64,000 nucleotides of DNA from Escherichia coli (lineage in GTDB: Bacteria > Pseudomonadota > Gammaproteobacteria > Enterobacterales > Enterobacteriaceae), in the NCBI RefSeq assembly GCF_030384885.1, contig NZ_CP128613.1; one strand, 5' to 3'. Position numbers and translations under genes: made by a program. The notes under the pieces were generated by a model. The model was not told the origin of the DNA. It saw only the letters and a program-made list of their open reading frames with translations, and searched no databases. Position 1 is the stretch's first letter. The number at the start of each line of letters is the position of its first letter. Of the stretch, positions 2,710-50,518 are shown piece after piece.

Positions 2710-4389
2710 TTATTGCGGGTAAGGCACCCAGTCGCCGCCGTTCAGGCGAACGTACGGTTTATCCTGGTATTGAATAACTACTGCATTTGAGTTCTCGGAG
2801 ACCGGTGCTGTTTGTGGCAACCCACTGGTGAGTTTTTTCCAGTCAACATTGTCTTCGGTGAAAATCTTACCATCAAGAACGCGAACCACCAGATCGGAGA
2901 TAGCCAGGAAGCTGCTCGGTTGGTTGATGACAATCGGTGCCCCCTGATGTGGTGCCTTCATGCCGAAGAATTTCACCCCAACGGGGACGTCTGTGATAGA
3001 CGGGCTAGGGATATCACGTAGGCCAGATACCTGCATTCTGTCGCCCTTCAGCGCGCCACCGTGTTCCGGCACCACTACCACCATCACTTTACGACCCGAT
3101 TTCTCCAGTTCAGTAAAGAAGGCGTCCAGCTCATCAAAGAATTTCTGCGCTCGCGCTTTGTAATCCGCTGTTTTGCTGACGCCCGGATAATGGTTGCCGT
3201 CATGCAGTGGAAGCGTGTTGTAGAACGTGGCACTACGGCTGTTTTTATCTTTTTCGGTAACGTCCAGCCAGCGGTTAAGCACGGCGGTATCGTCATAAAC
3301 CGGCGAACCATCAAAGCCCAACAAAATAACCGGCAGATTTGTTTGATCCATCAATTCGGTCTGCATGCCGCCATTTTCGCGAACTTCTTTCAAAAAACCG
3401 CCGAACTGGCCGTTATGTCCCATCATCAGGTGCTGGGTAAAGCCCAGTTTCGACAGGTTATCAAACAGATAGCAGTCGTTATTTGCCGGTTGATACAGAT
3501 TAGTGTGCGAAGTCTGCCCGCAGCTGGCGCGCAGTAAACGGATCGCTGCCGGGCCACTGTAGGAGGTGGCGGAGTTAAAGTTCTTGAACTCAATATCGAA
3601 ATGCGACCACAGCGGATGCGACATCAACCCGGCGGCTTCAATATCCGACCAGGAAAGCGAACAGATATTAATCACCAGTAGTTCAAATGGCTGAGCATCA
3701 GCGGGCAGCGAAGACGGGAAGGTCGATTTACGTTTCGCCTCCGCGTTATAGAAATTATTCAGCCAGGCGTTAAGGTTCGCCGTTGTTGGCGGTGCAGTTT
3801 GTGCGGGCATATCACCCACTACCGGTGCGCCACCCGTCGCCGCAACGGTTGCCGCTGCGTTACCACCCGTCGTTGTTACAGTGGTCGTCGGTTGACCGGC
3901 AGGCCACAAGGAGAAACTTGGTCCCGCCAGGGTAAGTACGTTCAGCCATAGCAGAATGGCAACCACAAAAACGGTAATGCGAATCCATTGTGATAGGAAT
4001 AACCAGGCCACTAATAAAACAAAAATGGCCCCAATCATCTGCCAGTTAATAAAGCGTGTGACAAGGTCGATTAAATAATCGGTACTGAACCCCGCCACCT
4101 GCGAACCCTGGCTCATTATGCTTTCCGGGCCAGGCAACCAGGTGTCATGCCAGAACAAAGCAAAGCCGATCGGCAGGGCAATCCAGTGGCGTAAGCGATG
4201 CAGGCTGTAGCGCGGAATGGGCATCAGCAGAAACGCGGCAAACACCAGATTGAGGAGCGGATGGAAGTTAAGATATCCCGCCCACAACAGGCCGAACTTA
4301 ACCAGAAAATAGAAGTTCCAGCCGGAAAGGCCGCGCCAGTATTGCCAGAGGGAAGAAGGCATGGCGGTATTTTGCGTAAATTGAGTCAT
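2710..4389 (-). CDS. bcsG: Cellulose phosphoethanolamine transferase BcsG (559 aa)
   Basis: ORF track; N-terminal TM helices plus alkaline-phosphatase-like periplasmic domain; size and position (bcsEFG operon) match. Confidence 0.9.
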
Positions 4390-4577
4390 TTTTTGGTTGC
4401 CCTGGCTTTTTCCGTGCGGCGTAACGTCCCGGCCGGTTTAACATAACGAGGTTTAGCAAAGAACAAACGTAAGGTGTCGCGAATGCGTCGCAAAGAGTGC
4501 CGCGCCAGATAGCCCAGCGGGAAAAATATCAGTGCGCAAACGACAATAATTTCAATGATATCGCTGATGGTCATCAT
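4386..4577 (-). CDS. bcsF: Cellulose biosynthesis small membrane protein BcsF (63 aa)
   Basis: 63-aa ORF overlapping bcsG start by 4 nt and bcsE stop by 4 nt (translational coupling); single TM helix. Confidence 0.85.
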
Positions 4578-6145
4578 GATGAGCGCTCCACAGTATCATC
4601 TAACAGTCGCATTGGTTCTGGTATTCTTCGCCAGTGGCGACCATCGTGCTCGGCATTGATGACCGGTTTAGAACTTTGCGTTAAAGGCAGCGGCATGCCC
4701 CATTGTTCTGGAGCAAGCAGGCGCATCTGCACCAGCTCGGCACTGATTTGATCATCTTCAAACCAGACCATACGGTTTGAGAAAATGTCGCCAGTCGGCA
4801 ATGGGAAAATATGATTCAACGCGGTATCCAGATCGTTAATCCGACAGAATGAGAGAAACAGCACCAGCCGATTACCGCCAATGGTCATGATATCGCCGGT
4901 ACGGTTAGGGCGACACAGCGTCAGGGCTTGCTCAACGCGGATACCCGGTACCGGACGTAGGGCAACCAGAACGCCTTTACCATGTGCAGGCAAGAGAGGG
5001 TTATTCATCATGTTGTTAACGGCATTACAGAACACATCCCACTTCTGGAAACCACGTAGTTTGAGCGGCTGGGTCATTGACAGCAAGGTAGTGATATCTT
5101 CCGGCACATAGCGACTAAACTTCTGCCCTTGCACGCTTTCGATCATCGTCAGACAGCGGGAGAGTGGCGCATTCCACGGGATAACCATATTTGCACCGCA
5201 GGCCAATAACAAACGTTCATCGGTGGCGCGCAAGCTTGCGGTATTTTCCCGTACGAGGATTTTCATCGCACTACCGCGCTGGCGACGCAGAGTATGAATG
5301 CTGCGGGCCAGTGGCTCGATTTGCGCATTTTGCTGTAAAGAAAAGACCACCGTTGCCGCCTGAGCGGTACGGGCTTCATTGAACAGAATTTCGTTATTGT
5401 TGAACAGTTGCCAGTGTTCCGATAGCGGCGGCGCACCTTCCAGTACAGCAACATTACTCAGAATGCGTTTTTCGTCGCTGCGTGGTTGGATCTCCGCCTC
5501 TTCGCTTTGAACTAATGTCCAGATACCTTTTTGTTGCTGAACGCTAAGCTGCTGACGGGCGCTGACCCCTTTTTCGTTGCACCAGAAGGCAATATCCAGC
5601 AAATGTTGGTCGCCCTGAAAACGCAAACTGGCAAGACCAAAAAGTGAACGGTATTCCTCAAGCAACAATGAAAATTGTTTATCGTTATTATTTCCGGGAT
5701 TAATTACCAAAAGCGAACAATGGTTTAACCTGCTCCATTTATTCATTTTATCCAACCATGAGCGAAGCCGCTCGGCAGGAATGTTTTGCCATGCGTTATT
5801 TGCGCAAACAAGAATAAAAAGGTAATTATTGGGAACAATAGAACACTGCAAATCACGGGCCAAATAGTATAGACCTTTTTCATGATTTAGCATTGAAAAT
5901 AATTTTATTTTTTCCGGCCCTTGAGAATCATCTAATTGAAAGATTTTCGCCGGATCGCTGTCCATGCTAATGACCGCGACGTGTGCGGTTTCAGCCTGGG
6001 ATGCAATTGTTTGATTCGCCAGACTGATAGCATCTTCATGGCGATCGACGTTAAACCACCAGACGCCGCCTGCTGGCATATGTCGCAGCTCATCCCATAA
6101 TGATGAGATACCGATAGAGAATACAGGGTCCACAATGTCCCTCAT
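4574..6145 (-). CDS. bcsE: c-di-GMP-binding cellulose biosynthesis protein BcsE (523 aa)
   Basis: ORF track 523 aa; first gene of bcsEFG, divergent from bcsR. Confidence 0.9.
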
Positions 6146-6416
6146 GTCACCATTTTGTCTGATTATCAGTTTACTAGCGAAAGCTAAGAAATAAACCTAC
6201 CATTGAAATTAAAACTTATCAGATTTAGCATGTGAATCAATTTAGCAGGTCACAAGACGTGTGATTTTAGTCTTTTCGTTTTTAACTTTTTTTGTTGCGT
6301 AACGGAAAGTCAAAAAGTGAGCAAATTCCCGTCTCGCCGTAAACAATAAACCGGCGAAATGCTCACGGTTAGAATTGTCTCATGAACGGTGCGGTTATTT
6401 CATAGGGATCAAGCAA

Positions 6417-6605
6417 ATGAATAACAATGAACCAGATACTCTGCCTGATCCCGCGATAGGCTATATCTTCCAGAATGATATTTTGGCGTTAAAGCAGGCG
6501 TTTTCACTGCCTGATATTGATTATGCCGATATTTCCCAACGCGAACAGTTGGCCGCGGCATTAAAACGCTGGCCGTTGCTGGCAGAGTTTGCGCAACAAA
6601 AGTAG
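6417..6605 (+). CDS. bcsR: Cellulose biosynthesis protein BcsR (62 aa)
   Basis: ATG at 6417 inside track ORF 6375..6605 (MNNNEPDTLPDP...); immediately upstream of bcsQ. Confidence 0.8.
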   Translation: MNNNEPDTLPDPAIGYIFQNDILALKQAFSLPDIDYADISQREQLAAALKRWPLLAEFAQQK

Positions 6606-6616
6606 GGGATTGGTGA

Positions 6617-7369
6617 ATGGCCGTACTGGGATTGCAGGGGGTGCGGGGAGGCGTGGGAACAACAACCATCACTGCCGCATTAGCCTGGTCATTACAAATG
6701 TTGGGAGAAGATGTCCTGGTGGTCGATGCCTGCCCGGACAACTTGTTGCGCCTGTCATTTAACGTTGATTTTACCCACCGTCAGGGCTGGGCCAGAGCCA
6801 TGCTGGACGGTCAGGACTGGCGTGACGCCGGGTTGCGCTATACCTCGCAACTCGATTTGCTGCCTTTTGGTCAGTTATCCATTGAAGAACAAGAAAATCC
6901 ACAGCACTGGCAAACCCGGCTGAGCGATATTTGCTCCGGCTTACAGCAACTAAAAGCCAGCGGGCGTTACCAGTGGATTTTAATCGACTTACCGCGTGAT
7001 GCCTCGCAGATAACCCACCAGCTGCTGAGTTTGTGCGATCACTCGCTGGCAATCGTCAATGTGGATGCCAACTGCCATATCCGGCTGCATCAGCAGGCGC
7101 TGCCGGATGGCGCGCATATTTTGATTAATGACTTCCGCATTGGCAGTCAGGTTCAGGACGATATTTACCAGCTTTGGTTGCAAAGCCAGCGCCGATTACT
7201 GCCAATGCTCATTCATCGTGATGAAGCGATGGCTCAATGCCTGGCGGCTAAGCAACCAGTCGGTGAATACCGCAGTGATGCGCTGGCGGCTGAAGAGATA
7301 CTGACGCTGGCTAACTGGTGCCTGTTGAACTATTCCGGGCTGAAAACGCCAGTCGGGAGTGCATCATGA
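6617..7369 (+). CDS. bcsQ: Cellulose synthase operon protein BcsQ (ParA/MinD-like ATPase), intact 250 aa
   Basis: Full-length ORF; codon 6 is TTG (Leu), not the TAG stop found in K-12. Confidence 0.9.
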   Translation: MAVLGLQGVRGGVGTTTITAALAWSLQMLGEDVLVVDACPDNLLRLSFNVDFTHRQGWARAMLDGQDWRDAGLRYTSQLDLLPFGQLSIEEQENPQHWQTRLSDICSGLQQLKASGRYQWILIDLPRDASQITHQLLSLCDHSLAIVNVDANCHIRLHQQALPDGAHILINDFRIGSQVQDDIYQLWLQSQRRLLPMLIHRDEAMAQCLAAKQPVGEYRSDALAAEEILTLANWCLLNYSGLKTPVGSAS

Positions 7370-9984
7370 GTATCCTGACCCGGTGGTTGCTTATCCCGCC
7401 GGTCAACGCGCGGCTTATCGGGCGTTATCGCGATTATCGTCGTCACGGCGCGTCGGCTTTCAGCGCGACGCTCGGCTGTTTTTGGTTGATCCTGGCCTGG
7501 ATTTTTATTCCGCTGGAGCACCCGCGCTGGCAGCGTATTCGCGCAGAACATAAAAACCTGTATCCGCATATCAACGCCTCGCGTCCGCGTCCGCTGGACC
7601 CGGTCCGTTATCTCATTCAAACATGCTGGTTACTGATCGGTACATCGCGCAAAGAAACGCCGAAACCGCGCAGGCGGACATTTTCAGGTCTGCAGAATAT
7701 TCGTGGACGTTACCATCAATGGATGAACGAGCTGCCTGAGCGCGTTAGCCATAAAACACAGCATCTCGATGAGAAAAAAGAACTCGGCCATTTGAGCGCC
7801 GGGGCGCGGCGGTTGATCCTCGGTATCATCGTCACCTTCTCGCTGATTCTGGCGTTAATCTGCGTTACCCAGCCGTTTAACCCGCTGGCGCAGTTTATCT
7901 TCCTGATGCTGCTGTGGGGTGTAGCGCTGATCGTACGGCGGATGCCGGGGCGCTTCTCGGCGCTAATGTTGATTGTGCTGTCGCTGACCGTTTCTTGCCG
8001 TTATATCTGGTGGCGCTACACCTCTACGCTGAACTGGGACGATCCGGTCAGTCTGGTGTGCGGGCTTATACTGCTGTTCGCTGAAACGTACGCGTGGATT
8101 GTGCTGGTGCTCGGCTACTTCCAGGTGGTATGGCCGCTGAATCGTCAGCCAGTACCGTTGCCGAAAGATATGTCGCTGTGGCCGTCGGTAGATATCTTTG
8201 TCCCGACTTACAACGAAGATCTCAACGTGGTGAAAAATACGATTTACGCCTCGCTGGGTATCGACTGGCCGAAAGACAAGCTGAACATCTGGATCCTCGA
8301 TGACGGCGGCAGGGAAGAGTTTCGCCAGTTTGCACAAAACGTGGGGGTGAAATATATCGCCCGTACCACTCATGAACATGCGAAAGCAGGCAACATCAAC
8401 AATGCGCTGAAATATGCCAAAGGCGAGTTCGTGTCGATTTTCGACTGCGACCACGTGCCGACGCGCTCATTCCTGCAAATGACCATGGGCTGGTTCCTGA
8501 AAGAAAAACAGTTGGCGATGATGCAGACGCCGCACCACTTCTTCTCACCGGATCCGTTTGAACGTAACTTGGGGCGTTTTCGTAAAACGCCAAACGAAGG
8601 CACGCTGTTTTATGGTCTGGTGCAGGACGGCAATGATATGTGGGATGCCACTTTCTTCTGCGGTTCCTGTGCGGTGATTCGTCGTAAGCCGCTGGATGAG
8701 ATTGGCGGCATTGCTGTCGAAACGGTAACCGAAGATGCGCATACTTCTCTGCGTTTGCACCGTCGTGGCTACACCTCTGCATATATGCGTATTCCGCAGG
8801 CGGCGGGGCTGGCGACCGAAAGTCTGTCGGCGCATATCGGTCAGCGTATTCGCTGGGCGCGCGGGATGGTGCAAATCTTCCGTCTCGATAACCCGCTCAC
8901 CGGTAAAGGGCTGAAGTTTGCTCAGCGGCTGTGCTACGTCAACGCCATGTTCCATTTCTTGTCGGGCATTCCACGACTGATCTTTCTGACTGCGCCGCTG
9001 GCGTTCCTGCTGCTGCATGCCTACATCATCTACGCGCCTGCGTTAATGATCGCTCTGTTTGTGCTGCCGCATATGATTCACGCCAGCCTGACCAACTCGA
9101 AGATTCAGGGTAAATATCGCCACTCTTTCTGGAGCGAAATCTACGAAACGGTACTGGCGTGGTATATCGCACCACCGACGCTGGTGGCGCTGATTAACCC
9201 GCACAAAGGCAAATTTAACGTCACCGCCAAAGGTGGACTGGTGGAAGAAGAGTACGTCGACTGGGTGATCTCACGGCCCTACATTTTCCTGGTATTGCTC
9301 AACCTGGTCGGTATTGCGGTCGGTATCTGGCGTTACTTCTACGGCCCGCCAACCGAGATGCTCACTGTCATCGTCAGTATGGTGTGGGTGTTCTACAACC
9401 TGATTATTCTCGGTGGTGCGGTAGCGGTATCGGTAGAAAGCAAACAGGTTCGCCGATCGCACCGCGTGGAGATGACGATGCCCGCGGCAATTGCCCGCGA
9501 AGATGGTCACCTCTTCTCGTGTACCGTTCAGGATTTCTCCGACGGTGGTTTGGGGATCAAGATCAACGGTCAGGCACAGATTCTGGAAGGGCAGAAAGTG
9601 AATCTGTTGCTTAAACGCGGTCAGCAAGAATACGTCTTCCCGGCCCAGGTGGCGCGCGTGATGGGTAATGAAGTTGGGCTGAAATTAATGCCGCTCACCA
9701 CCCAGCAACATATCGATTTTGTGCAGTGTACGTTTGCCCGTGCGGATACATGGGCGCTCTGGCAGGACAGCTATCCGGAAGATAAGCCGCTGGAAAGTCT
9801 GCTGGATATTCTGAAGCTCGGCTTCCGTGGCTACCGCCATCTGGCGGAGTTTGCGCCTTCTTCGGTGAAGGGCATATTCCGTGTGCTGACTTCTCTGGTT
9901 TCCTGGGTTGTATCGTTTATTCCGCGCCGCCCGGCGCGGAGCGAAACGGCACAACCATCGGATCAGGCTTTGGCTCAACAATGA
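7366..9984 (+). CDS. bcsA: Cellulose synthase catalytic subunit BcsA (872 aa, GT2 + PilZ)
   Basis: ATG at 7366 (MSILTRWLL...) overlapping bcsQ stop (ATGA); GT2 motifs (DDG, DCD, QTPH, QRIRW) and C-terminal PilZ. Confidence 0.95.
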   Translation: MSILTRWLLIPPVNARLIGRYRDYRRHGASAFSATLGCFWLILAWIFIPLEHPRWQRIRAEHKNLYPHINASRPRPLDPVRYLIQTCWLLIGTSRKETPKPRRRTFSGLQNIRGRYHQWMNELPERVSHKTQHLDEKKELGHLSAGARRLILGIIVTFSLILALICVTQPFNPLAQFIFLMLLWGVALIVRRMPGRFSALMLIVLSLTVSCRYIWWRYTSTLNWDDPVSLVCGLILLFAETYAWIVLVLGYFQVVWPLNRQPVPLPKDMSLWPSVDIFVPTYNEDLNVVKNTIYASLGIDWPKDKLNIWILDDGGREEFRQFAQNVGVKYIARTTHEHAKAGNINNALKYAKGEFVSIFDCDHVPTRSFLQMTMGWFLKEKQLAMMQTPHHFFSPDPFERNLGRFRKTPNEGTLFYGLVQDGNDMWDATFFCGSCAVIRRKPLDEIGGIAVETVTEDAHTSLRLHRRGYTSAYMRIPQAAGLATESLSAHIGQRIRWARGMVQIFRLDNPLTGKGLKFAQRLCYVNAMFHFLSGIPRLIFLTAPLAFLLLHAYIIYAPALMIALFVLPHMIHASLTNSKIQGKYRHSFWSEIYETVLAWYIAPPTLVALINPHKGKFNVTAKGGLVEEEYVDWVISRPYIFLVLLNLVGIAVGIWRYFYGPPTEMLTVIVSMVWVFYNLIILGGAVAVSVESKQVRRSHRVEMTMPAAIAREDGHLFSCTVQDFSDGGLGIKINGQAQILEGQKVNLLLKRGQQEYVFPAQVARVMGNEVGLKLMPLTTQQHIDFVQCTFARADTWALWQDSYPEDKPLESLLDILKLGFRGYRHLAEFAPSSVKGIFRVLTSLVSWVVSFIPRRPARSETAQPSDQALAQQ

Positions 9985-20660: not shown

Positions 20661-22157
20661 ATGCAGGGCACAAAAATTCGACTTTTAGCGGGCGGTTTGC
20701 TGATGATGGCCACTGCTGGCTATGTGCAGGCAGATGCGCTCCAGCCTGATCCAGCATGGCAACAGGGGACGCTTTCCAACGGTTTACAGTGGCAAGTGCT
20801 GACCACGCCCCAGCGTCCCAGCGATCGCGTTGAAATTCGCCTGCTGGTTAATACCGGTTCGCTCGCCGAAAGTACACAACAGAGCGGTTACAGTCACGCC
20901 ATCCCTCGTATTGCGTTAACGCAAAGCGGTGGCCTTGAAGCAGCACAGGCGCGTTCATTGTGGCAGCAGGGGATCGACCCTAAACGCCCGATGCCGCCGG
21001 TAATTGTCTCTTATGACACCACGCTGTTTAATCTGAGTTTGCCCAATAACCGTAACGACTTGCTGAAAGAAGCGCTCTCTTATCTGGCAAATGCCACTGG
21101 CAAACTGACTATCACGCCAGAAACCATCAACCACGCGCTGCAAAGTCAGGACATGGTGGCAACCTGGCCTGCCGATACTAAAGAGGGCTGGTGGCGCTAT
21201 CGTCTGAAAGGATCAACCTTGTTAGGTCACGATCCTGCCGATCCGCTGAAACAACCCGTTGAAGCGGAAAAGATTAAAGATTTCTATCAGAAATGGTACA
21301 CCCCGGATGCAATGACGCTGCTGGTGGTGGGAAACGTGGATGCGCGCTCGGTTGTCGACCAAATCAACAAAACGTTTGGCGAACTGAAAGGCAAACGTGA
21401 AACACCGGCTCCGGTGCCGACGCTTTCTCCGCTGCGTCCTGAAGCGGTGAGTATTATGACCGATGCGGTACGTCAGGACCGGTTATCTATCATGTGGGAT
21501 ACGCCGTGGCAGCCTATTCGTGAATCAGCCGCACTGCTGCGCTACTGGCGTGCGGACCTGGCCCGTGAGGCGCTGTTCTGGCACGTTCAGCAAGCGTTAA
21601 GCACCAGTAACAGCAAAGACATCGGTCTTGGATTTGACTGCCGTGTGCTGTATCTGCGTGCGCAGTGTGCCATCAACATCGAATCACCAAACGACAAGCT
21701 GAACAGCAACCTTAATTTGGTAGCGCGTGAGCTGGCAAAGGTTCGCGATAAAGGTCTGCCGGAAGAAGAGTTCAATGCGTTAGTGGCGCAAAAGAAACTG
21801 GAGCTGCAGAAACTGTTTGCCGCCTATGCGCGAGCTGATACCGATATTTTGATGGGTCAGCGGATGCGTTCGTTGCAAAATCAGGTCGTTGATATCGCGC
21901 CGGAGCAATATCAGAAACTGCGCCAGGACTTCCTTAACAGCCTGACGGTGGAGATGTTAAATCAGGATCTGCGTCAGCAGTTGTCGAACGATATGGCGTT
22001 AATTCTTCTGCAGCCGAAAGGCGAGCCAGAATTTAACATGAAAGCGTTGCAGGCGGCCTGGGATCAAATCATGGCCCCATCTACTACTGCTGCCACAACC
22101 TCAGTTGCCACGGATGACGTACATCCTGAAGTGACGGATATTCCACCCGCACAGTAA
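20661..22157 (+). CDS. yhjJ: Periplasmic M16-family peptidase-like protein YhjJ (498 aa)
   Basis: ORF track; signal peptide; size and position match yhjJ. Confidence 0.85.
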   Translation: MQGTKIRLLAGGLLMMATAGYVQADALQPDPAWQQGTLSNGLQWQVLTTPQRPSDRVEIRLLVNTGSLAESTQQSGYSHAIPRIALTQSGGLEAAQARSLWQQGIDPKRPMPPVIVSYDTTLFNLSLPNNRNDLLKEALSYLANATGKLTITPETINHALQSQDMVATWPADTKEGWWRYRLKGSTLLGHDPADPLKQPVEAEKIKDFYQKWYTPDAMTLLVVGNVDARSVVDQINKTFGELKGKRETPAPVPTLSPLRPEAVSIMTDAVRQDRLSIMWDTPWQPIRESAALLRYWRADLAREALFWHVQQALSTSNSKDIGLGFDCRVLYLRAQCAINIESPNDKLNSNLNLVARELAKVRDKGLPEEEFNALVAQKKLELQKLFAAYARADTDILMGQRMRSLQNQVVDIAPEQYQKLRQDFLNSLTVEMLNQDLRQQLSNDMALILLQPKGEPEFNMKALQAAWDQIMAPSTTAATTSVATDDVHPEVTDIPPAQ

Positions 22158-22360
22158 TAAATCACCCGGCAGCGTTTCTTCTGCGCTGCCGGGATTAACG
22201 GTAATAAATTAGTTACCGTGATATAACCGCAGATATTTTTCCTGGCACGGCGGTAGCGCGCAGATAACCATTCATTATTAAAATAAACTTACCGTAGAGT
22301 GGGTTTAATTATTTATTAGCTGAATAAATTATACCGGTGCCTCCTGGAAGGAGTGAGTTT

Positions 22361-22786
22361 ATGCTTGTGTTAAAATCACAATCGATTGGATTCAGGATTT
22401 CCACAGCTTATTTATCTTTAACATATACAGAGTCTGATGGCGTCAAGATTAAAGTAGATGCTCTGGAGTTAATATCAACAGAGAGAGATTATGTTCAAAT
22501 TGAACTGGTCTTCACTACTGTTGCTGAAGTTAAGTGTGCTACCGTCAATTTTTATGAAGCCAACTATAACAATATTGTTATTAAGAAGGTTGATGGTGAA
22601 AATCTGGACTCCGGTATATATCAAGTAATGAATTCTGTACCGCTTGAAGAAAAAGAGAAATTATATGATCCTAAAAAACGGTTGAAGTTAAAACATTATA
22701 TTATAGCAGGTTATGATAGTTATGTTGAGATTTTAGCTACTGGTTTTAGCTGTATACGATGCCAGGCAATAGATGGTGTTAAATAA
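22361..22786 (+). CDS. Hypothetical protein (141 aa), AT-rich accessory ORF 1
   Basis: ATG at 22361 preceded by ggaaggagtg RBS (track ORF 22337..22786); low GC; no recognised family. Confidence 0.5.
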   Translation: MLVLKSQSIGFRISTAYLSLTYTESDGVKIKVDALELISTERDYVQIELVFTTVAEVKCATVNFYEANYNNIVIKKVDGENLDSGIYQVMNSVPLEEKEKLYDPKKRLKLKHYIIAGYDSYVEILATGFSCIRCQAIDGVK

Positions 22787-23040
22787 TGGCCTATCATATA
22801 GAAATATTGAAAATTGAAGAAACTGATAAAGTAGTAAAATATGAATTTGGACCTACATCTTCTGACTATTGTAGATCTGATTACGGCGAATTCGTGATAG
22901 ATAAAAGAACGGGTGAGATGACATTAGTCAGAATGGTTAAAAACGATTCAGCTAATAAATTTTATTTGCGAGCGAGTTTTAAGATTCTGACCTGTTGGCG
23001 AAAGGGCTATTTGCCAAAAAATGAGGAATGGGCTTCTTAA
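22786..23040 (+). CDS. Hypothetical protein (84 aa), AT-rich accessory ORF 2
   Basis: ATG overlaps stop of ORF 1 (TAATG), suggesting translational coupling. Confidence 0.45.
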   Translation: MAYHIEILKIEETDKVVKYEFGPTSSDYCRSDYGEFVIDKRTGEMTLVRMVKNDSANKFYLRASFKILTCWRKGYLPKNEEWAS

Positions 23041-23139
23041 TAAGTAACTTTGCAGAATAAGTGAATTTTCCCATTTTTTTGGGGGCAGTCGTTGATTCTT
23101 ACACAGTTTATGTTATGGGTGCCAAATTTAGGATAGGCT

Positions 23140-23619
23140 ATGGATTTTCACTTGGATATTTTGCTCCCTACACAATTCGCTCCAGAGGAACTAGATCTAC
23201 AAGAGGTTATGATTCACTGGGGTGGGGAAACCTTTCATCGCGACCCTCCGGTATACGCCTGGTGTAATCATCATCTTTTGCAGAGATGCAATCTACCGAT
23301 TACTTATGGCCCACCTTTAGATGAGCACATAGACTTTAATGAATATCATGTTTACAACTTCAATGGTTCTTTAGTCGATGACCTGGAAATGGCTGTGAAT
23401 AAAGGAAAGGATATTTCAACCAATCCTATAATTAAATTTATTAACAACCTGGTTAGCAAAAATTACGGGGGGTGGGTAATCTTGTCATTAGATGATGAAA
23501 AAATAGAAGTGATTAAAAATATAAGCTTCCAGTATTCTTTTCTATCATTATTAGTTGATGGACTAAAATGGGAAAGACCGCATGGGGTGGCAATATTATA
23601 TAATTCACACTTAATTTAA
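23140..23619 (+). CDS. Hypothetical protein (159 aa), AT-rich accessory ORF 3
   Basis: ORF track; low GC; no recognised family. Confidence 0.45.
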   Translation: MDFHLDILLPTQFAPEELDLQEVMIHWGGETFHRDPPVYAWCNHHLLQRCNLPITYGPPLDEHIDFNEYHVYNFNGSLVDDLEMAVNKGKDISTNPIIKFINNLVSKNYGGWVILSLDDEKIEVIKNISFQYSFLSLLVDGLKWERPHGVAILYNSHLI

Positions 23620-23640
23620 TTAATTAATGAATGGAAACAT

Positions 23641-23943
23641 ATGTATCGTGTAAAGGTTGTTTGGCTTACAGAAAATGAAGGTGGCAGAAGGAGCGCACCT
23701 CCTATCGGTAGATATTATCCCGTCTCCAGGTTTCCAGAGGAGAAAACTGACTGGCAAAATAATGCATGGAGTGTTGTTTTTGAATTGGAAAAACCTAATG
23801 TAACCGATGGACGTATCGTTTCAATGGGGTGCGTTCAGTTCCTTTTCGATACCGCCCCTGAACAATGGATGACTAAGTACGAGGCATTTGAGATCTACGA
23901 AGGACCAAGAAAAGTCGCAGATGTATTATTGATAGGGAATTAA
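23641..23943 (+). CDS. Hypothetical protein (100 aa), AT-rich accessory ORF 4
   Basis: ORF track; 21 nt after ORF 3; low GC. Confidence 0.45.
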   Translation: MYRVKVVWLTENEGGRRSAPPIGRYYPVSRFPEEKTDWQNNAWSVVFELEKPNVTDGRIVSMGCVQFLFDTAPEQWMTKYEAFEIYEGPRKVADVLLIGN

Positions 23944-24004
23944 TTTTATTTATGTCAGGCTATTTAATTATATTTGCGACCTCAACGCATTTTCAGGAGT
24001 ATAA

Positions 24005-24538
24005 ATGCGTAACAAAAAACGCATACTATTCTTGCTAACAGTCATTTTTTGCTTAACAGGTCTTTATTCCTGCAACAAAAATTTTCTCTTACTCTGGGAT
24101 GCCAATAATATGTATGTCAGCACAAGAAATAATATCGATAAAGACAAGGTAAAAATAGAATTCGGTATCAGCGTCAACACGATCAACCGAGAAACGGATG
24201 CCGAATTATTTGCTGACAGAGATAAGTATGCAGTGCTCTTCGATGGTAGCCTGAAAAATAAGATGATAAGCGAATACGGAGAAAATGATTTTTTAATTAC
24301 CTACGATAACCGCTGCTATTTATCATTTCGTCAATTTAAAACAAATCGTCGTCATCAACATGACTATTATTTTGACTTCTTTAACAAGGATGGGAATGTC
24401 TTCGTCACGGTCGAAATTAAAGGTGAGAACCCGCTTAAATTTACGCGTAGTTTTAATGATATGCGTCAGCAGTTTTCACCATTCCGTAAGGGTAGCCCTT
24501 CTCACTCCTGCAAGGTTATTTCTTCAGATCCTTCTTAA
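24005..24538 (+). CDS. Hypothetical exported protein, possible lipoprotein (177 aa), AT-rich accessory ORF 5
   Basis: N-terminal signal peptide MRNKKRILFLLTVIFCLTGLYSC with Cys after hydrophobic core; ggagt RBS upstream; 3' end overlaps convergent gene by 23 nt. Confidence 0.5.
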   Translation: MRNKKRILFLLTVIFCLTGLYSCNKNFLLLWDANNMYVSTRNNIDKDKVKIEFGISVNTINRETDAELFADRDKYAVLFDGSLKNKMISEYGENDFLITYDNRCYLSFRQFKTNRRHQHDYYFDFFNKDGNVFVTVEIKGENPLKFTRSFNDMRQQFSPFRKGSPSHSCKVISSDPS

Positions 24539-26510
24539 ACACTGGTTCTGGACAATCACGACCAAAATGCGCCGCCCAGTCAAAAGATTTACCGTTTTTC
24601 ACGTAGCGTTGATAAATTAATGCACCGGTTTCTGGATCAAGATATCTGATCCAACTTGCAGCATGGCATAACACGGCAGCCCAAGCCTGGGTTTTAGGGT
24701 GAAGTAAATCGGCTGATTGTCCGGCCCATTCCGCAGCCTGCCAGCGGTAATGCAAAAAATGCTCATCAACAGTGGGGATTGCGTGGCGGAAACGTTGTTT
24801 TTCTTTACGACTTATCCACTGATCGTTATTGCTGTATTCAAAGGGTTCTGAATACTGCCCGCTGGTAATGGCATAATCGGGATACATTTCATAAGCCGCC
24901 AATTCGATACCACTGAAACGCAAAAGCCGCGCAGCTTCGTATTGCGCCTGGGCGCGTTGCTTATCAGGGATGTTTTTATTTTTTGCTATCGCCATTAAAT
25001 CAGCCAGTTTTTGTGCGGCCTGGCGATAATTGGGAATATCAAACCAATTGATGGCCTGCTGGTACTGGCCATGACGAATTAATCGTCTACCCAATAACGC
25101 CCGTAATTTAACATCCGTTGGAATGATATCTGGCGAAAGATAATAACCGTCATTGTTATTATTTAAATCTACAGGTTTTAAAGGGTGCTGAGGTACCGGT
25201 ACGTTTTTTTCAACAAACGCCTGTAACTCCGGTAAGGTCAAAACGTTTTCTGCAACCCAGGCTAAATCGGCCCAATAGAGATCTTTGGCCTGGTAAAACA
25301 ATGCGGTGGCCTGAAGATAATCATCGCGTTTTAATGCCAAAATCGCCTGCTCACTGGCAATACGGCAAGATGGGATAATAACTTTATCTCCATGATAATA
25401 AGGACTTTCCGGGTCCATACTTCCCCACACTTCATCGGTCGGGAACATCGGGGCTGCGCGAGCATAGTGACGCGTTGCCAGTGGAATATCTCCGGCTCGT
25501 AATGCCATTTTTGCTTTTAACCATTCGCTTAATCCACTTTCTGGCGCATCCTGCAACAGCGTTTGTGCTAACGAATAATTTCCTGCCCGATACGCCAGTG
25601 CTGCCAGGCGATCGCTATAACTAAATCCTTTAACTCTGTGTTGACTTAGCAACTTAATTAAACGGTCGCGATGCGTTGGACAGGTATAATCTACAAGGTC
25701 CTTAGTACAGGCTTCGCTAACATACCCCCAGTCATGACGAATAAAGAGCTCTGCGATTACCAGTTGCTGAACCAGAGAATCATTAATAACCGACTCCAGC
25801 AGTGGTAAATTTTTCTCCCTGGTTATATACAGCGAAATCATCCGTAGCGACGCTTTCCCGGAGGGCGAACCCTGGGCCGCTTGCCGGGCATACATTTTTA
25901 CTGCCGCAGCGACATCACCTTTTTTCAGATAATAATGCCCAATCTGACCGAGACTGGCGAGAGAGAGCAATTCAGGATCGGCTGCGCCATTACGCACTTC
26001 TTCAATGATTTGCTGATAACGCTGTATGGCCTGCTCAGCAAGTTCCTGATTAAAGCCACCTTTATTGATTATAAGATCGAGATCGTCGTCAGAGGCATCA
26101 AATCCCCCCCTTGCCAGACTATATAGCGCAGCCAGCCGCCATTCTCCTTGCTCTGTTTTCGGCAAGGCTAATAATTGCTGAAAGTATGGGCTATCGTATT
26201 TTCCCTGATGGAAATCCTTAGCTCCTGAATAATAAAGTTCCAGTGCCCGATTTTGCACAGGAGGTTCAGCATCTGTATCTGTCTGCGTTGCCTCTTCAGG
26301 CGTATTTTCTTGCCATACTGGTAAACCAGGATCGCGTTTAACCAACTGTTGTACTTCAAAGACAAAACTGCCATTTGGCATTTCCAGCAGTGCGCTATTG
26401 CGGTCAGTTAACAGATGATTGGGAATAAATGGTCCACAGGCATTAACGTTGGCGCTAATTAGCGAGAGAAATACAACAACGGAAAGCCGCGATATTTTAG
26501 GGGATAACAT
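24516..26510 (-). CDS. Secreted helical-repeat (TPR/Sel1-like) protein of unknown function (~664 aa)
   Basis: Track ORF 24516..26735 trimmed to ATG at 26510 (MLSPKISRLSVVVFLSLISANVNA signal peptide, ggagag RBS, 8 nt after stop of upstream gene); Sel1/TPR-like segments (e.g. VKMYARQAAQG) seen by eye. Confidence 0.6.
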   Translation of the reverse strand: MLSPKISRLSVVVFLSLISANVNACGPFIPNHLLTDRNSALLEMPNGSFVFEVQQLVKRDPGLPVWQENTPEEATQTDTDAEPPVQNRALELYYSGAKDFHQGKYDSPYFQQLLALPKTEQGEWRLAALYSLARGGFDASDDDLDLIINKGGFNQELAEQAIQRYQQIIEEVRNGAADPELLSLASLGQIGHYYLKKGDVAAAVKMYARQAAQGSPSGKASLRMISLYITREKNLPLLESVINDSLVQQLVIAELFIRHDWGYVSEACTKDLVDYTCPTHRDRLIKLLSQHRVKGFSYSDRLAALAYRAGNYSLAQTLLQDAPESGLSEWLKAKMALRAGDIPLATRHYARAAPMFPTDEVWGSMDPESPYYHGDKVIIPSCRIASEQAILALKRDDYLQATALFYQAKDLYWADLAWVAENVLTLPELQAFVEKNVPVPQHPLKPVDLNNNNDGYYLSPDIIPTDVKLRALLGRRLIRHGQYQQAINWFDIPNYRQAAQKLADLMAIAKNKNIPDKQRAQAQYEAARLLRFSGIELAAYEMYPDYAITSGQYSEPFEYSNNDQWISRKEKQRFRHAIPTVDEHFLHYRWQAAEWAGQSADLLHPKTQAWAAVLCHAASWIRYLDPETGALIYQRYVKNGKSFDWAAHFGRDCPEPVFKKDLKK

Positions 26511-27705
26511 TGAACTCTCCTTGTAAATTTGGGGTGCATCGCGCCCATCCCAGCGCACTGCTTTCACCAGCACGCAACTGCCTGGTACTGATGCGAATAA
26601 AACGTAACGAGGATGCGTTGGTTTGTGCCTGATAATGGCCTGCGCCATCAGCATATGTGCATTGAGCAGCAGGCAGCTCGATCTGTTGTGGCAATGGCGC
26701 GTCAATATCACCATTGTTTTTAATGGCCAAATCAATAAGTTGCTTGTCAGCCTGTGGCGAAATTATCAAAGACCAGCGCGGCGTCAAAGGTTTATGGTGA
26801 ATAACGGCATCTAAAGTAGACAGGGACCAGGCGCGGCGATCATTTGCCAGCGGGAGTCGGAACCAGATAAATCCCTGTAACCCTGAGGGCGGTTTTTGTT
26901 CCAGCTGTTGGGTAAAATCAGCCAACGTTTGTGGCGCCACACTCAGCTCCCGCAACTCTTGTGCAATATACAGTGGGGCTTCGCTTTCAATACGGTTATC
27001 GCGCGTCAGCGCAGAACCGTAAGCCGGCAGAGCGATGTAAAAAGGATGGGGAGAAATACGTGCATATTGCGTGCTCCAGCGCTTAGCCAGTTTACTGTCG
27101 AATAATCCCTGTTGCGGCGATAACACCGTATGCACCTGCAAAACAGAAATATCGGCGTCAGCCAGCAGCGCAGGCAGATGTGGTGAATTCAGCCAGTCAG
27201 GTAATGCAGTAATACTGAGTTTTAATTCTGCAGGAAGATTCTGGCGCAATGTCCTTAGCAACTGTTGGTATTCCACCAGTTTTGCCGTTGGCGCATCGAA
27301 ATCAATTTCAATGCCAGCCAGCTTAATACCCGCCTCTTTCCACTCATTCATTGTTCGTACAATGTTCTGCACAACATTTTGTTGATTAATATGAGAGAGC
27401 TTACCGTCCAGTCGCGCAACCAGCCAGACGGGGCGATCATCTTGTTTTATAAATGTTTTATTAACGGCGGTGTAGCGTATACCTTCCTGAGGATGAACTT
27501 GTAGCTCCAGAATGCGTAGCGTTGAGAACAGATTACGGCTCTGTTTTAGTGCGTGCTCATGTTGCGCGGTCCACAAACGCTGCCAGATATAGACTTGTTG
27601 ATCGAGGGGGCGTGTTTTTTGCGGCATAAGCCGGGTCAGCAGCCCATATCCAGAGCCGATAAAAACGATGAGTGAAATGGCAAAAATCCATTTGCGAGAG
27701 GGCAT
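26497..27705 (-). CDS. Membrane-anchored periplasmic protein of unknown function (402 aa)
   Basis: ORF track; single N-terminal TM helix (WIFAISLIVFIGSGYGLL) then soluble domain; first gene of two-gene operon. Confidence 0.6.
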   Translation of the reverse strand: MPSRKWIFAISLIVFIGSGYGLLTRLMPQKTRPLDQQVYIWQRLWTAQHEHALKQSRNLFSTLRILELQVHPQEGIRYTAVNKTFIKQDDRPVWLVARLDGKLSHINQQNVVQNIVRTMNEWKEAGIKLAGIEIDFDAPTAKLVEYQQLLRTLRQNLPAELKLSITALPDWLNSPHLPALLADADISVLQVHTVLSPQQGLFDSKLAKRWSTQYARISPHPFYIALPAYGSALTRDNRIESEAPLYIAQELRELSVAPQTLADFTQQLEQKPPSGLQGFIWFRLPLANDRRAWSLSTLDAVIHHKPLTPRWSLIISPQADKQLIDLAIKNNGDIDAPLPQQIELPAAQCTYADGAGHYQAQTNASSLRFIRISTRQLRAGESSALGWARCTPNLQGEFNVIP

Positions 27706-27759
27706 TTGAACCCGGAATCCATGTGGTCAATAACAGAAAGTATACTGCGGAACTATTTA

Positions 27760-27789
27760 GCGGAGAAATTATTCCATTAATTTCTCCGC
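27760..27789. terminator. Perfect hairpin between kdgK 3' end and accessory operon start
   Basis: gcggagaaatta-ttcc-ttaatttctccgc inverted repeat. Confidence 0.4.
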
Positions 27790-27806
27790 TATGATTGATG
27801 TGTTAT

Positions 27807-28736
27807 TTACTGAGGCATGGCTTCGCGAGGAATAATCGCGCCGCGATACTGAATAACGGTACTTGCGGTCAGGTGCCCGCGTTTCGCCGCATTTTCCGCA
27901 CTGGCGCCCGTCAAACGTACCGCCAGATAACCGGCACTGAAAGAGTCGCCAGCTGCAGTGGTATCGATCACTTTTTCTTTTGGCAGTTTCACCGCCGGAA
28001 CATCCACTAACCCCTCGCCAGCAATGGACACCAGGCAAGAATCCGCCCCGCGTTTCACCACCACTTCTTTCACGCCCGCGTTATGGGTGCGCGCAATGAC
28101 GTCTTCCACCGGTTGTTGACCCCACAGCGCGTCTTCGTCGTCCAGCGTCAGGAAGGCGATATCCGTGCATTCCAGCATTTGCTGGTACATCTGCTGTGTC
28201 TCTTCTTTGCTGGCCCACAAGCGCGGACGGTAGTTATTGTCGAAAATCACTTTTCCACCGTTAGTGCGGCATTCGCGCAGCAGGGAAAGCAGCTTTTCGC
28301 GGCTGGTCGGGCTTAAGATTGCCAGGCTAATCCCGCTCAGGTAGAGATAATCAAAATTCGCCAGCTCTGCACAAATCGCTGCGGATTGCTCACTCTCCAG
28401 CCAAAATTTGGCGGCGGCTTCGTTACGCCAGTAGTAGAACGTACGTTCGCCAGTGCTGTCGGTTTCAATGTAGTAAAGACCCGGCAGACGGTTTTCCATC
28501 CGCTGGGTCAGGGAAGTATCAACGTTCTCGCCGTGCCAGGCGTCCAGCATCTGCTGACTAAAACTGTCCGTTCCCAGCGCCGTCACGTAATGAACGGTTA
28601 ATGCCGCAGGATCGACCTGACGGGCGATATAGACGGAAGTGTTCAGGGTATCGCCGCCGAAACCGCGCTTAACGTCCGCGCCTTTCTCGGAAAGCTCAAT
28701 CATGCATTCGCCAATCACGGCAATCTTTTTGGACAT
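27807..28736 (-). CDS. kdgK: 2-dehydro-3-deoxygluconokinase KdgK (309 aa)
   Basis: ORF track; PfkB-family sugar kinase sequence; size matches. Confidence 0.9.
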   Translation of the reverse strand: MSKKIAVIGECMIELSEKGADVKRGFGGDTLNTSVYIARQVDPAALTVHYVTALGTDSFSQQMLDAWHGENVDTSLTQRMENRLPGLYYIETDSTGERTFYYWRNEAAAKFWLESEQSAAICAELANFDYLYLSGISLAILSPTSREKLLSLLRECRTNGGKVIFDNNYRPRLWASKEETQQMYQQMLECTDIAFLTLDDEDALWGQQPVEDVIARTHNAGVKEVVVKRGADSCLVSIAGEGLVDVPAVKLPKEKVIDTTAAGDSFSAGYLAVRLTGASAENAAKRGHLTASTVIQYRGAIIPREAMPQ

Positions 28737-48854: not shown

Positions 48855-49192
48855 TTTAGTCCCTGAAAATTCTTGAGATATAACGGTTCTTTAAATTGCG
48901 CGCGAGGAGAGGTATGAGGGATTTACAGACCAGCGGCATAGTGGGGTTGTCAGCCAGTAAGATGGGATGCAAGCACAGTGATCGACATGGTGAGGTCAAC
49001 GACAAAAAAAATGTTGCCGTTCTGCCAACAGTTCCTGCCAGCATTCGGGCAACGAAGGGTTCTACTGGTGGATACACATACCAGGGGAATAAAGTCGTTT
49101 TCGCCTCTCCTTTAGTCATCACCGGGGATAATGAAATCAGCATCTGCATCCCTCTTCATGCCTGCCATCATTTTCAGTTAATTATGTCCTGA

Positions 49193-49720
49193 CTAAAAAT
49201 AAGATGTGATACCCAGGGTGACGATGTCGCTCATACGTCTTAGTTTCAGCTTGTACATAATGTTGAATTTCTGAATCTTTAATGTTTGTTGCGAAATATT
49301 GAGCGTTGACGTGATATTGCTTTCGTTTTTGTTTTTCAGAATCAGCTGCATAATTTTGAACTGATTATGTGAAAAACATAATTGTGAATTCTTATGGGGC
49401 AAGTGTTTACCATAAGTAATCTCAAGAAGATTTTTGATACTTTCTTTGCGGCTGACAAAATAAATAGGCGCTTTAGCTTTTAGTTTACTGATGTGATAAG
49501 GTGCCAAAACAATAATTCTCTCGGCGTCTAATTTCTCCAGAAATTTAATCGCTTCTTCATCAAGGATATGGTTGTGATAGGTATCAATGATAACCTTGAA
49601 GGGTTTATTACCTACTTTTTTGATCTCTGACAGGGAATTGATTTTTATCATTTCGTGATTATCTTTCAACTGCCAAAAGCCCTGTAAAAGAAAAGAATCT
49701 TTCGTCATGAGAAAAATCAT
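49193..49720 (-). CDS. gadE: LuxR-family acid-resistance master regulator GadE (175 aa)
   Basis: ATG at 49720 (MIFLMTKDSFLLQGFW...) with ggag RBS, inside track ORF 49193..49798. Confidence 0.9.
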   Translation of the reverse strand: MIFLMTKDSFLLQGFWQLKDNHEMIKINSLSEIKKVGNKPFKVIIDTYHNHILDEEAIKFLEKLDAERIIVLAPYHISKLKAKAPIYFVSRKESIKNLLEITYGKHLPHKNSQLCFSHNQFKIMQLILKNKNESNITSTLNISQQTLKIQKFNIMYKLKLRRMSDIVTLGITSYF

Positions 49721-50518
49721 AACTTGCTCCTTAGCCGTTATCGTTTCGAACATGTCATCCTTTTCATTATTTACATCCCTGTCCGAATCGTTGTTCAATA
49801 TAGTAAACGCCTATAAGAACCTTGCCCTTCGTGAACTAATACGTCTATTAACACTAATCAATAATTCAGATTTATCCATCACGCACTCCATATATTGATC
49901 CTAAGTAAAATTCCTGGTTGTTATCAGATTGTAAACTGCAAACAAAAAATTAACGTTTGCGGATTACTGCCCAAGAATAAGTTATCAATAACCAGTTTGT
50001 GATCTCTGAAGAATATTACTAAAGTTAAAATGTAATCCGATTTAAATATCGAGTCTCCTTGTTTCGACTTAAGCTGGCAATTGGATTGCCAGCTTTCTTT
50101 TAACGCATTGAAATTACCTGAGTAAATAACTCATTCATGTCTTCAGGTTATTATATAGCGTCTGGAGACACGGATATTTATGCAATGTAATCAACGCCAA
50201 TTGCAAAAAAATGAACCCGGATTACTTATTTAACCGCCCATAGCATCAACGCCTACGGAACTCTTTGTTCACTTTCCCACAGCACTTTTAAAACATTAAA
50301 CCTGACTACGGAAAATATCAGCCATGATAATGTTTGAAATGGCTAATTTGCCATGCAATGAAAAAAATCAGATAAAATTCAGTAGGTTGAAATACTTATC
50401 AGCAGGTAATTATTTCAATGATAGCGCGCAATTGATCTAAAATGCTGTGTAGCGGAGAGAGTATTAATTGGATCATAGTCACATCAAGTGACTATGATCC
50501 AGGTGGCAATAGGGATAA
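49721..50518 (-). promoter_or_regulatory. Long AT-rich gadE upstream control region
   Basis: ~800 bp non-coding AT-rich tract between hdeD 3' end and gadE start; established knowledge that gadE has an extended multi-promoter regulatory region. Confidence 0.6.

Follow-up and report, generated by a model that had tools for sequence, protein, structure and literature searches.

Tail-to-tail overlap of an accessory gene and a TPR-like gene in the Escherichia coli yhjJ-kdgK region as a probable by-product of locus history

In the 64,000-nt stretch of E. coli DNA analysed here (hereafter, the window), two genes of opposite orientation share their last nucleotides. The accessory ORF5 (24005-24538, + strand, 177 aa) and a gene encoding a TPR-like protein (24516-26510, - strand, 664 aa) overlap convergently over the 23 nt from 24516 to 24538, with both strands coding. 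Is this shared end a regulatory device, a mistake in one of the two stops, or a relic of how the locus was put together? Our analysis favours, with reasonable confidence, a genuine and heritable tail-to-tail overlap that arose as an incidental by-product of the history of the locus and not as a regulatory device.

The gene order in this part of the window is dctA, yhjJ, five small + strand ORFs (22361-24538), a converging - strand operon, and kdgK. ORF5 is the last of the five AT-rich small ORFs downstream of yhjJ, and the four others (141/149, 84, 159 and 100 aa; 22361-23943, + strand) form a variable cassette array that extends from yhjJ to ORF5. The operon is composed of a DUF3142 protein gene (gene 1; 26497-27705, - strand, 402 aa; Pfam PF11340, E = 2e-73) and the TPR gene (gene 2). 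GC content is 31-42% in the five small ORFs, 43-53% in the operon and about 50-58% in the flanking core genes. E. coli K-12 has no array and no operon, but only a 95-nt yhjJ-kdgK spacer; this spacer is unrelated in sequence, and a simple insertion of the island into a K-12-type intergenic region was therefore rejected.

Two coding genes and their shared 23 nucleotides

The stop codon of ORF5 is the TAA at 24536-24538 on the + strand, and that of the TPR gene is the TAA at 24518-24516 on the - strand; each is the earliest stop in its frame. On the + strand, the shared segment contains the last two nucleotides of V171, the codons through S177 and the stop; on the - strand, it contains two nucleotides of an F codon, the residues K-K-D-L-K-K and the stop. 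E. coli 2013C-4282 (NZ_CP027579.1) matches the window at 100%, and the PGAP ends of both coding sequences in that genome coincide exactly with the overlap ends read from the sequence. The 23-nt 3'-end overlap between a 177-aa + strand ORF and a 664-aa - strand ORF, as described in an earlier note on this DNA, is thus borne out by the coordinates and by PGAP.

We compared six alleles of the junction, drawn from complete genomes, drafts and metagenomes: those of the window, GF4-3, SMS-3-5, a metagenome contig (L015) and a draft genome (L016), and a remnant in Escherichia sp. E4385. The 23-nt overlap is present in the four diverged full alleles GF4-3, SMS-3-5, L015 and L016 as well as in the window, while the E4385 remnant, which retains only the last ~30 codons of ORF5, shows the same 3' junction with the TPR stop. 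The position of the ORF5 stop is fixed across the alleles, with a TAA to TGA change, and the TPR protein ends in KKDLKK, RKELKK or RMELKK. The ORF5-TPR junction region is present in 30 RefSeq E. coli genomes.

The earlier note had also proposed that one of the two stops might be mis-called. This does not hold: both are first in-frame stops, PGAP concurs, and the six alleles keep the frames and the 23-nt overlap. Many long convergent overlaps in databases are indeed artefacts of 3' extension (PMC2478687), and a sequencing or frameshift error or a wrong stop could in principle produce a similar picture; the agreement of independent assemblies of six alleles makes such an artefact next to impossible here. 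With two real genes, consistent coordinates on opposite strands and conservation in at least two genomes, the ORF5/TPR pair is an ordinary convergent overlap, already present in the RefSeq annotation.

ORF5 is a real protein-coding gene under purifying selection, since its dN/dS among Escherichia alleles is 0.15-0.32, it has 169 homologues in the database, an AGGAG ribosome-binding site lies 5 nt upstream of its ATG, and its AlphaFold2 model is confident (pLDDT 86, pTM 0.80), with an N-terminal helix followed by a beta-sandwich. Based on the model and the sequence, the protein is composed of an N-terminal hydrophobic helix with the lipobox-like LTGLYSC, a beta-sandwich spanning residues ~35-149 and a disordered tail; it is listed as 'Lipoprotein' in one source. 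Among the homologues are Escherichia alleles and, at 45-60% identity, many proteins of Bacteroidota (Riemerella, Tenacibaculum and Cyclobacteriaceae), and the core of the family is strongly conserved from W31 to R148. Searches of ORF5 against Pfam and NCBIfam gave zero matches above threshold. In LR-58-2, ORF5 is interrupted by IS5.

The TPR gene is 664 codons long from the ATG at 26510, or 739 if the ORF is extended mechanically to an upstream TTG. Its product has a signal-peptide-like N-terminus and weak TPR matches in Pfam. On its dN/dS of 0.11-0.27 and its 55 homologues, which occur in Escherichia, Pseudocitrobacter, Serratia and relatives, and Xanthomonadales, it too is a real protein-coding gene under purifying selection.

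The ORF5 stop and the junction

What the shared nucleotides encode can be judged from the two protein families. In the TPR family, a conserved C-terminal motif, FGxxCPxPxF, ends just before the overlap. Enterobacterales TPR proteins carry 0-20 variable residues after this motif, and in the window these residues, KKDLKK, and the stop constitute the overlap. In the ORF5 family, the 95 homologues from outside Escherichia have a conserved ...I-Y-N-M-I-E-L end at the positions that match the overlap; its Y, N, M and E each occur in 73-84 of these proteins, and none of them is kept in E. coli, where residues 173-177 (SSDPS) stand in the place of Y-N-M-I-E. The confidence of the AlphaFold2 model also declines towards this end, where the three final ten-residue blocks have pLDDT values of 69, 59 and 48. 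Taken together, the family alignments and the model indicate that the overlap double-codes only weakly constrained, apparently dispensable tails in both proteins.

Directly upstream of the overlap, codons 158-170 (24476-24515, + strand) form a fast-evolving tail that belongs to ORF5 only. Among the six alleles, 18 of the 40 columns in 24476-24515 are variable, compared with 4/30 just upstream, 4/23 within the overlap and 10/62 in the flank that codes for the TPR protein only. As measured from R148, the ORF5 tail is 29 aa long, and the family median is 33 aa. ORF5 therefore has terminal residues with no family homology and an orthologue that ends earlier, but it is not clearly longer than its orthologues, and the term 'extension' applies only to its last ~5 codons.

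The position of the overlap coincides with a boundary between blocks of different distribution. A 3.3-kb block is present in SMS-3-5 (3742-7027) and absent from the THO-008 type. Its left edge is the first base of the TPR stop codon, and its other edge lies 51 nt upstream of the DUF3142 start. GC content rises at the junction from ~35% to ~46%. In the window, 98% identity with the THO-008 type gives way at 24476-24515 to the lineage that carries the DUF3142-TPR block.

ORF5 ends differently where its neighbour differs. In ~170 RefSeq genomes without the block, ORF5 is 194 aa long and has a convergent 29-nt overlap with kdgK; in the THO-008 type (L004), ORF5 occupies 6001-6585 and kdgK 6557-7486, and ORF5 runs through the hairpin downstream of kdgK. 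At the L006 locus, the ORF5 orthologue has 171 aa and its own TAA at the position of codon 173, five codons before the stop of the window; another cassette follows directly, and there is no overlap. Since the gene overlaps kdgK by 29 nt in one context and the TPR gene by 23 nt in another, and has its own stop in L006, ORF5 ends within whatever lies past the cassette boundary.

The most plausible reading of the 23-nt overlap is that the ORF5 stop was displaced at a mosaic junction, because the edge of the block coincides with the TPR stop and the end of ORF5 varies with its neighbour. By the same comparison of alleles, the ORF5 stop would be evolutionarily secondary. We propose that a horizontally acquired array of small, AT-rich genes downstream of yhjJ, with ORF5 as its final member, came to adjoin a separate and oppositely read two-gene DUF3142-TPR operon. 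Lacking a stop of its own before the junction, ORF5 reads seven codons of the antisense strand of the TPR gene up to a TAA. The double use of the 23 nt would persist at little cost because they encode only unconstrained C-terminal tails.

Counting against such an incidental origin, the overlap length and the position of the ORF5 stop are kept in every block-carrying allele, even where the overall identity of the TPR proteins is only about 63%. The constant length could reflect selection on the arrangement rather than inheritance together with recombination of the 3' end.

The length of the read-in is itself unremarkable. In the phase of ORF5, the antisense strand of the TPR gene contains 28 stops in 664 codons, at intervals that average 24 codons (median 15); the seven codons read by ORF5 are fewer than this median and not beyond chance. 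The window contains 10 convergent annotated pairs, of which ORF5/TPR is the sole overlapping one, the spacers of the others ranging from 0 to 362 nt. In E. coli K-12, 75 of 663 overlapping pairs are convergent (Huvet & Stumpf 2014, PMC4161906), and the convergent class accounts for about 7% of well-characterised overlaps (Palleja et al. 2008, PMC2478687). A single overlap among 10 pairs is in line with the K-12 count of convergent overlaps. The second-tightest convergent pair of the window, a hypothetical ORF (48915-49193) facing gadE (49194-49721), has a zero-base spacer (L013 16915-17193/17194-17721).

Stop loss or displacement is a documented and common route to convergent overlaps (PMC2478687; PMC4161906). 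The pair described here shares with other bacterial convergent overlapping pairs its two real genes on opposite strands, a short 3' overlap (<60 nt) and conservation among close relatives only. Nothing essential sets it apart from them; its particular features are that one partner was horizontally acquired and that the overlap lies exactly on a presence/absence boundary. It also resembles the 'group iii' overlaps (3'-end extension) of Palleja et al. 2008, in that ORF5 reads to the next in-frame stop in the downstream gene. It differs from that group in that ORF5/TPR is no artefact and ORF5 as a whole does not exceed the usual length of the family, since the conserved C-terminus native to it was already degenerate.

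In a further explanation, ORF5 and the AT-rich array are silent or decaying cargo in this strain, for example silenced by H-NS; the TPR gene alone would be expressed, and the overlap would have no consequence. This would agree with the GC content of the array (31-42%), the truncation of ORF5 by IS5 in LR-58-2 and the 3' remnant in E4385, the altered tail in about 170 genomes, the almost free evolution of codons 158-170 and the lack of a convincing promoter match upstream of the array. Nevertheless, the dN/dS of 0.15-0.32 among Escherichia alleles shows purifying selection on the ORF5 core, the frame is intact in six alleles with a good ribosome-binding site, and the invariant residues of the family are kept. 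We consider silent cargo an unlikely account of ORF5.

An obligate three-gene module formed by ORF5 and the DUF3142-TPR pair was rejected as well, each being found without the other. At the edges of the DUF3142-TPR indel, we found no convincing direct repeats. The octamer ATTAACGG immediately follows the terminator hairpin of yhjJ (at 22194-22201) and recurs at the edge of the DUF3142-TPR indel that faces kdgK (L003 7028-7035, L004 6514-6521), opening a hairpin each time. Its recurrence could be due to chance or could mark a recombination site.

Transcript ends and antisense effects

The earlier note stated that the two genes leave no room for terminators between them, and in this it was right: the coding regions overlap, and a scan for the intrinsic terminator consensus found no site within ~400 nt of the overlap on either strand. 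The nearest + strand candidates, at 24943 and 25185, are weak and lie inside the TPR gene, and the - strand has no candidate downstream of the TPR stop. Local folds of the two strands at the overlap have no extra stability relative to shuffled sequence (z = +0.70 and -0.48), and a search of 22000-28000 against Rfam returned no family match. The C/G ratio near the overlap, about 0.7-1.3, is uninformative for rut-like stretches.

Because no intrinsic terminator is available, transcripts probably end inside the opposing gene, through Rho-dependent termination of untranslated antisense RNA and/or RNA polymerase collision. In E. coli, Rho acting on untranslated RNA can end transcripts, and collision, which has been proposed for convergent genes (bioRxiv 10.1101/2022.10.23.513370), could add to this if both units are active. 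An antisense effect, if there is any, would be a side effect and not a selected function. Mutual antisense interference between ORF5 and the TPR gene, which the earlier note had raised, is possible in principle but unsupported, and the overlap can be explained without it. A selected antisense function is likewise unsupported, as nothing in the sequence points to one.

A selected regulatory arrangement would make convergent transcription the cause of mutual interference, by polymerase collision or by RNase III cleavage of the RNA duplex, in an excludon-like manner or through collision-driven termination. Such an arrangement could account for the absence of a terminator between or near the two genes and for the conservation of the overlap and of the ORF5 stop position in six alleles. 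Moreover, collision-driven bidirectional terminators, with a pausing hairpin, have been described between convergent E. coli genes (Ju et al. 2019, cited in bioRxiv 10.1101/2022.10.23.513370). By analogy with these, ORF5/TPR is a convergent pair without a canonical intrinsic terminator, and overlapping transcript 3' ends may be expected. It differs from them in that its two genes leave no intergenic space and that neither the folds, which are no more stable than shuffled sequence, nor the terminator scan reveals a pause-type hairpin. Additionally, ORF5 and the DUF3142-TPR operon each occur alone, which indicates that the two do not form a functional pair; where the operon is absent, ORF5 overlaps kdgK with equal ease; and a stop-less junction fully explains the overlap. 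On balance, selection for regulation is improbable.

Excludons of Listeria are defined by a long antisense transcript and by the demonstrated reciprocal expression of functionally opposed genes. The ORF5/TPR locus is similar to them in that it contains oppositely oriented neighbouring units whose transcripts could overlap, but the independent occurrence of ORF5 and the DUF3142-TPR operon in other genomes argues against a dedicated pair. The most specific form of this idea, in which the 23-nt terminator-less junction would be a collision or antisense switch that makes the expression of the ORF5 lipoprotein and of a DUF3142-TPR envelope operon mutually exclusive, is highly improbable. If true, it would provide an excludon-like link between an immunity-type cassette array and a conserved operon next to the cellulose (bcs) region.

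As a regulatory finding, the overlap carries little weight, such short convergent overlaps numbering dozens per E. coli genome. Read as an incidental product of locus history, it offers a clean and datable example of how an overlap can originate, with a cassette gene that would have lost its stop at a mosaic junction.

The yhjJ-kdgK hotspot, its cassettes and the DUF3142-TPR operon

The surrounding locus is of more interest than the overlap, as it combines a hypervariable hotspot, whose immunity-like cassettes are shared with Bacteroidota, with a DUF3142-TPR operon that is uncharacterised. The region between yhjJ and kdgK (22158-27806 in the window; also L003, L004, L006, L007, L014 and L016) is hypervariable in Escherichia, and in non-K-12 strains it contains 1 to 10 AT-rich small cassette ORFs, with or without the DUF3142-TPR operon. 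The four cassette ORFs upstream of ORF5 in the window have no match in Pfam or NCBIfam.

A clue to the nature of the cassettes comes from sister arrays. TriTu, the immunity protein to the EF-Tu ADP-ribosylating Rhs toxin TreTu (PMC9825190), is encoded in the GF4-3 array and in the ten-cassette array of L006 (PF24689, E = 1e-16 to 1e-18; L002 3579-3827 and L006 3315-3611), and no toxin gene was found near the TriTu genes of these arrays. Similarly, no toxin gene lies beside ORF5 in the loci examined. ORF5 thus has no immunity-family match and no adjacent toxin, and it does belong to a variable array with known immunity genes. Its position in a variable, same-strand, AT-rich array whose sister alleles contain a TriTu-family gene is reminiscent of the orphan immunity arrays described for TriTu (PMC9825190). 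Judging from this context, the genes of the ORF5 array are probably orphan immunity-type genes.

The identity of ~50-60% between Escherichia and Bacteroidota members of the ORF5 family points to a cross-phylum transfer of what is predicted to be a small, membrane-anchored beta-sandwich protein. In Tenacibaculum, several ORF5 paralogues are present, and an array of small unannotated ORFs surrounds the ORF5 homologue (loci L010 and L011).

We found no functional literature on the DUF3142-TPR pair, and a single incidental mention of DUF3142. In the window, the DUF3142 stop and the TPR start overlap by 14 nt (26497-26510). Loci of Escherichia, Pseudocitrobacter and Serratia (L007, L008, L009 5001-5014) share this 14-nt overlap, and the DUF3142 gene precedes the TPR gene in every case. 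Conservation of this overlap from Escherichia to Pseudocitrobacter and Serratia suggests translational coupling of the two genes.

Synonymous divergence differs between the two operon genes. The DUF3142 allele of the window is very far from those of GF4-3, SMS-3-5 and E4385 (dS about 1.6-1.9), and its TPR allele is close to those of GF4-3 and SMS-3-5 (dS 0.12-0.15); to judge from such values, the operon is a mosaic. In the TPR gene of E4385, the 3' ~100 nt are nearly identical to the E. coli alleles, the whole protein being only 63% identical.

The TPR homologues of Xanthomonadales have a long C-terminal extension with a hydrophobic stretch resembling a membrane anchor. Outside the yhjJ-kdgK locus, the DUF3142-TPR pair is followed by an ordinary spacer of 72-305 nt, which in Serratia contains a strong palindromic, bidirectional hairpin/terminator.
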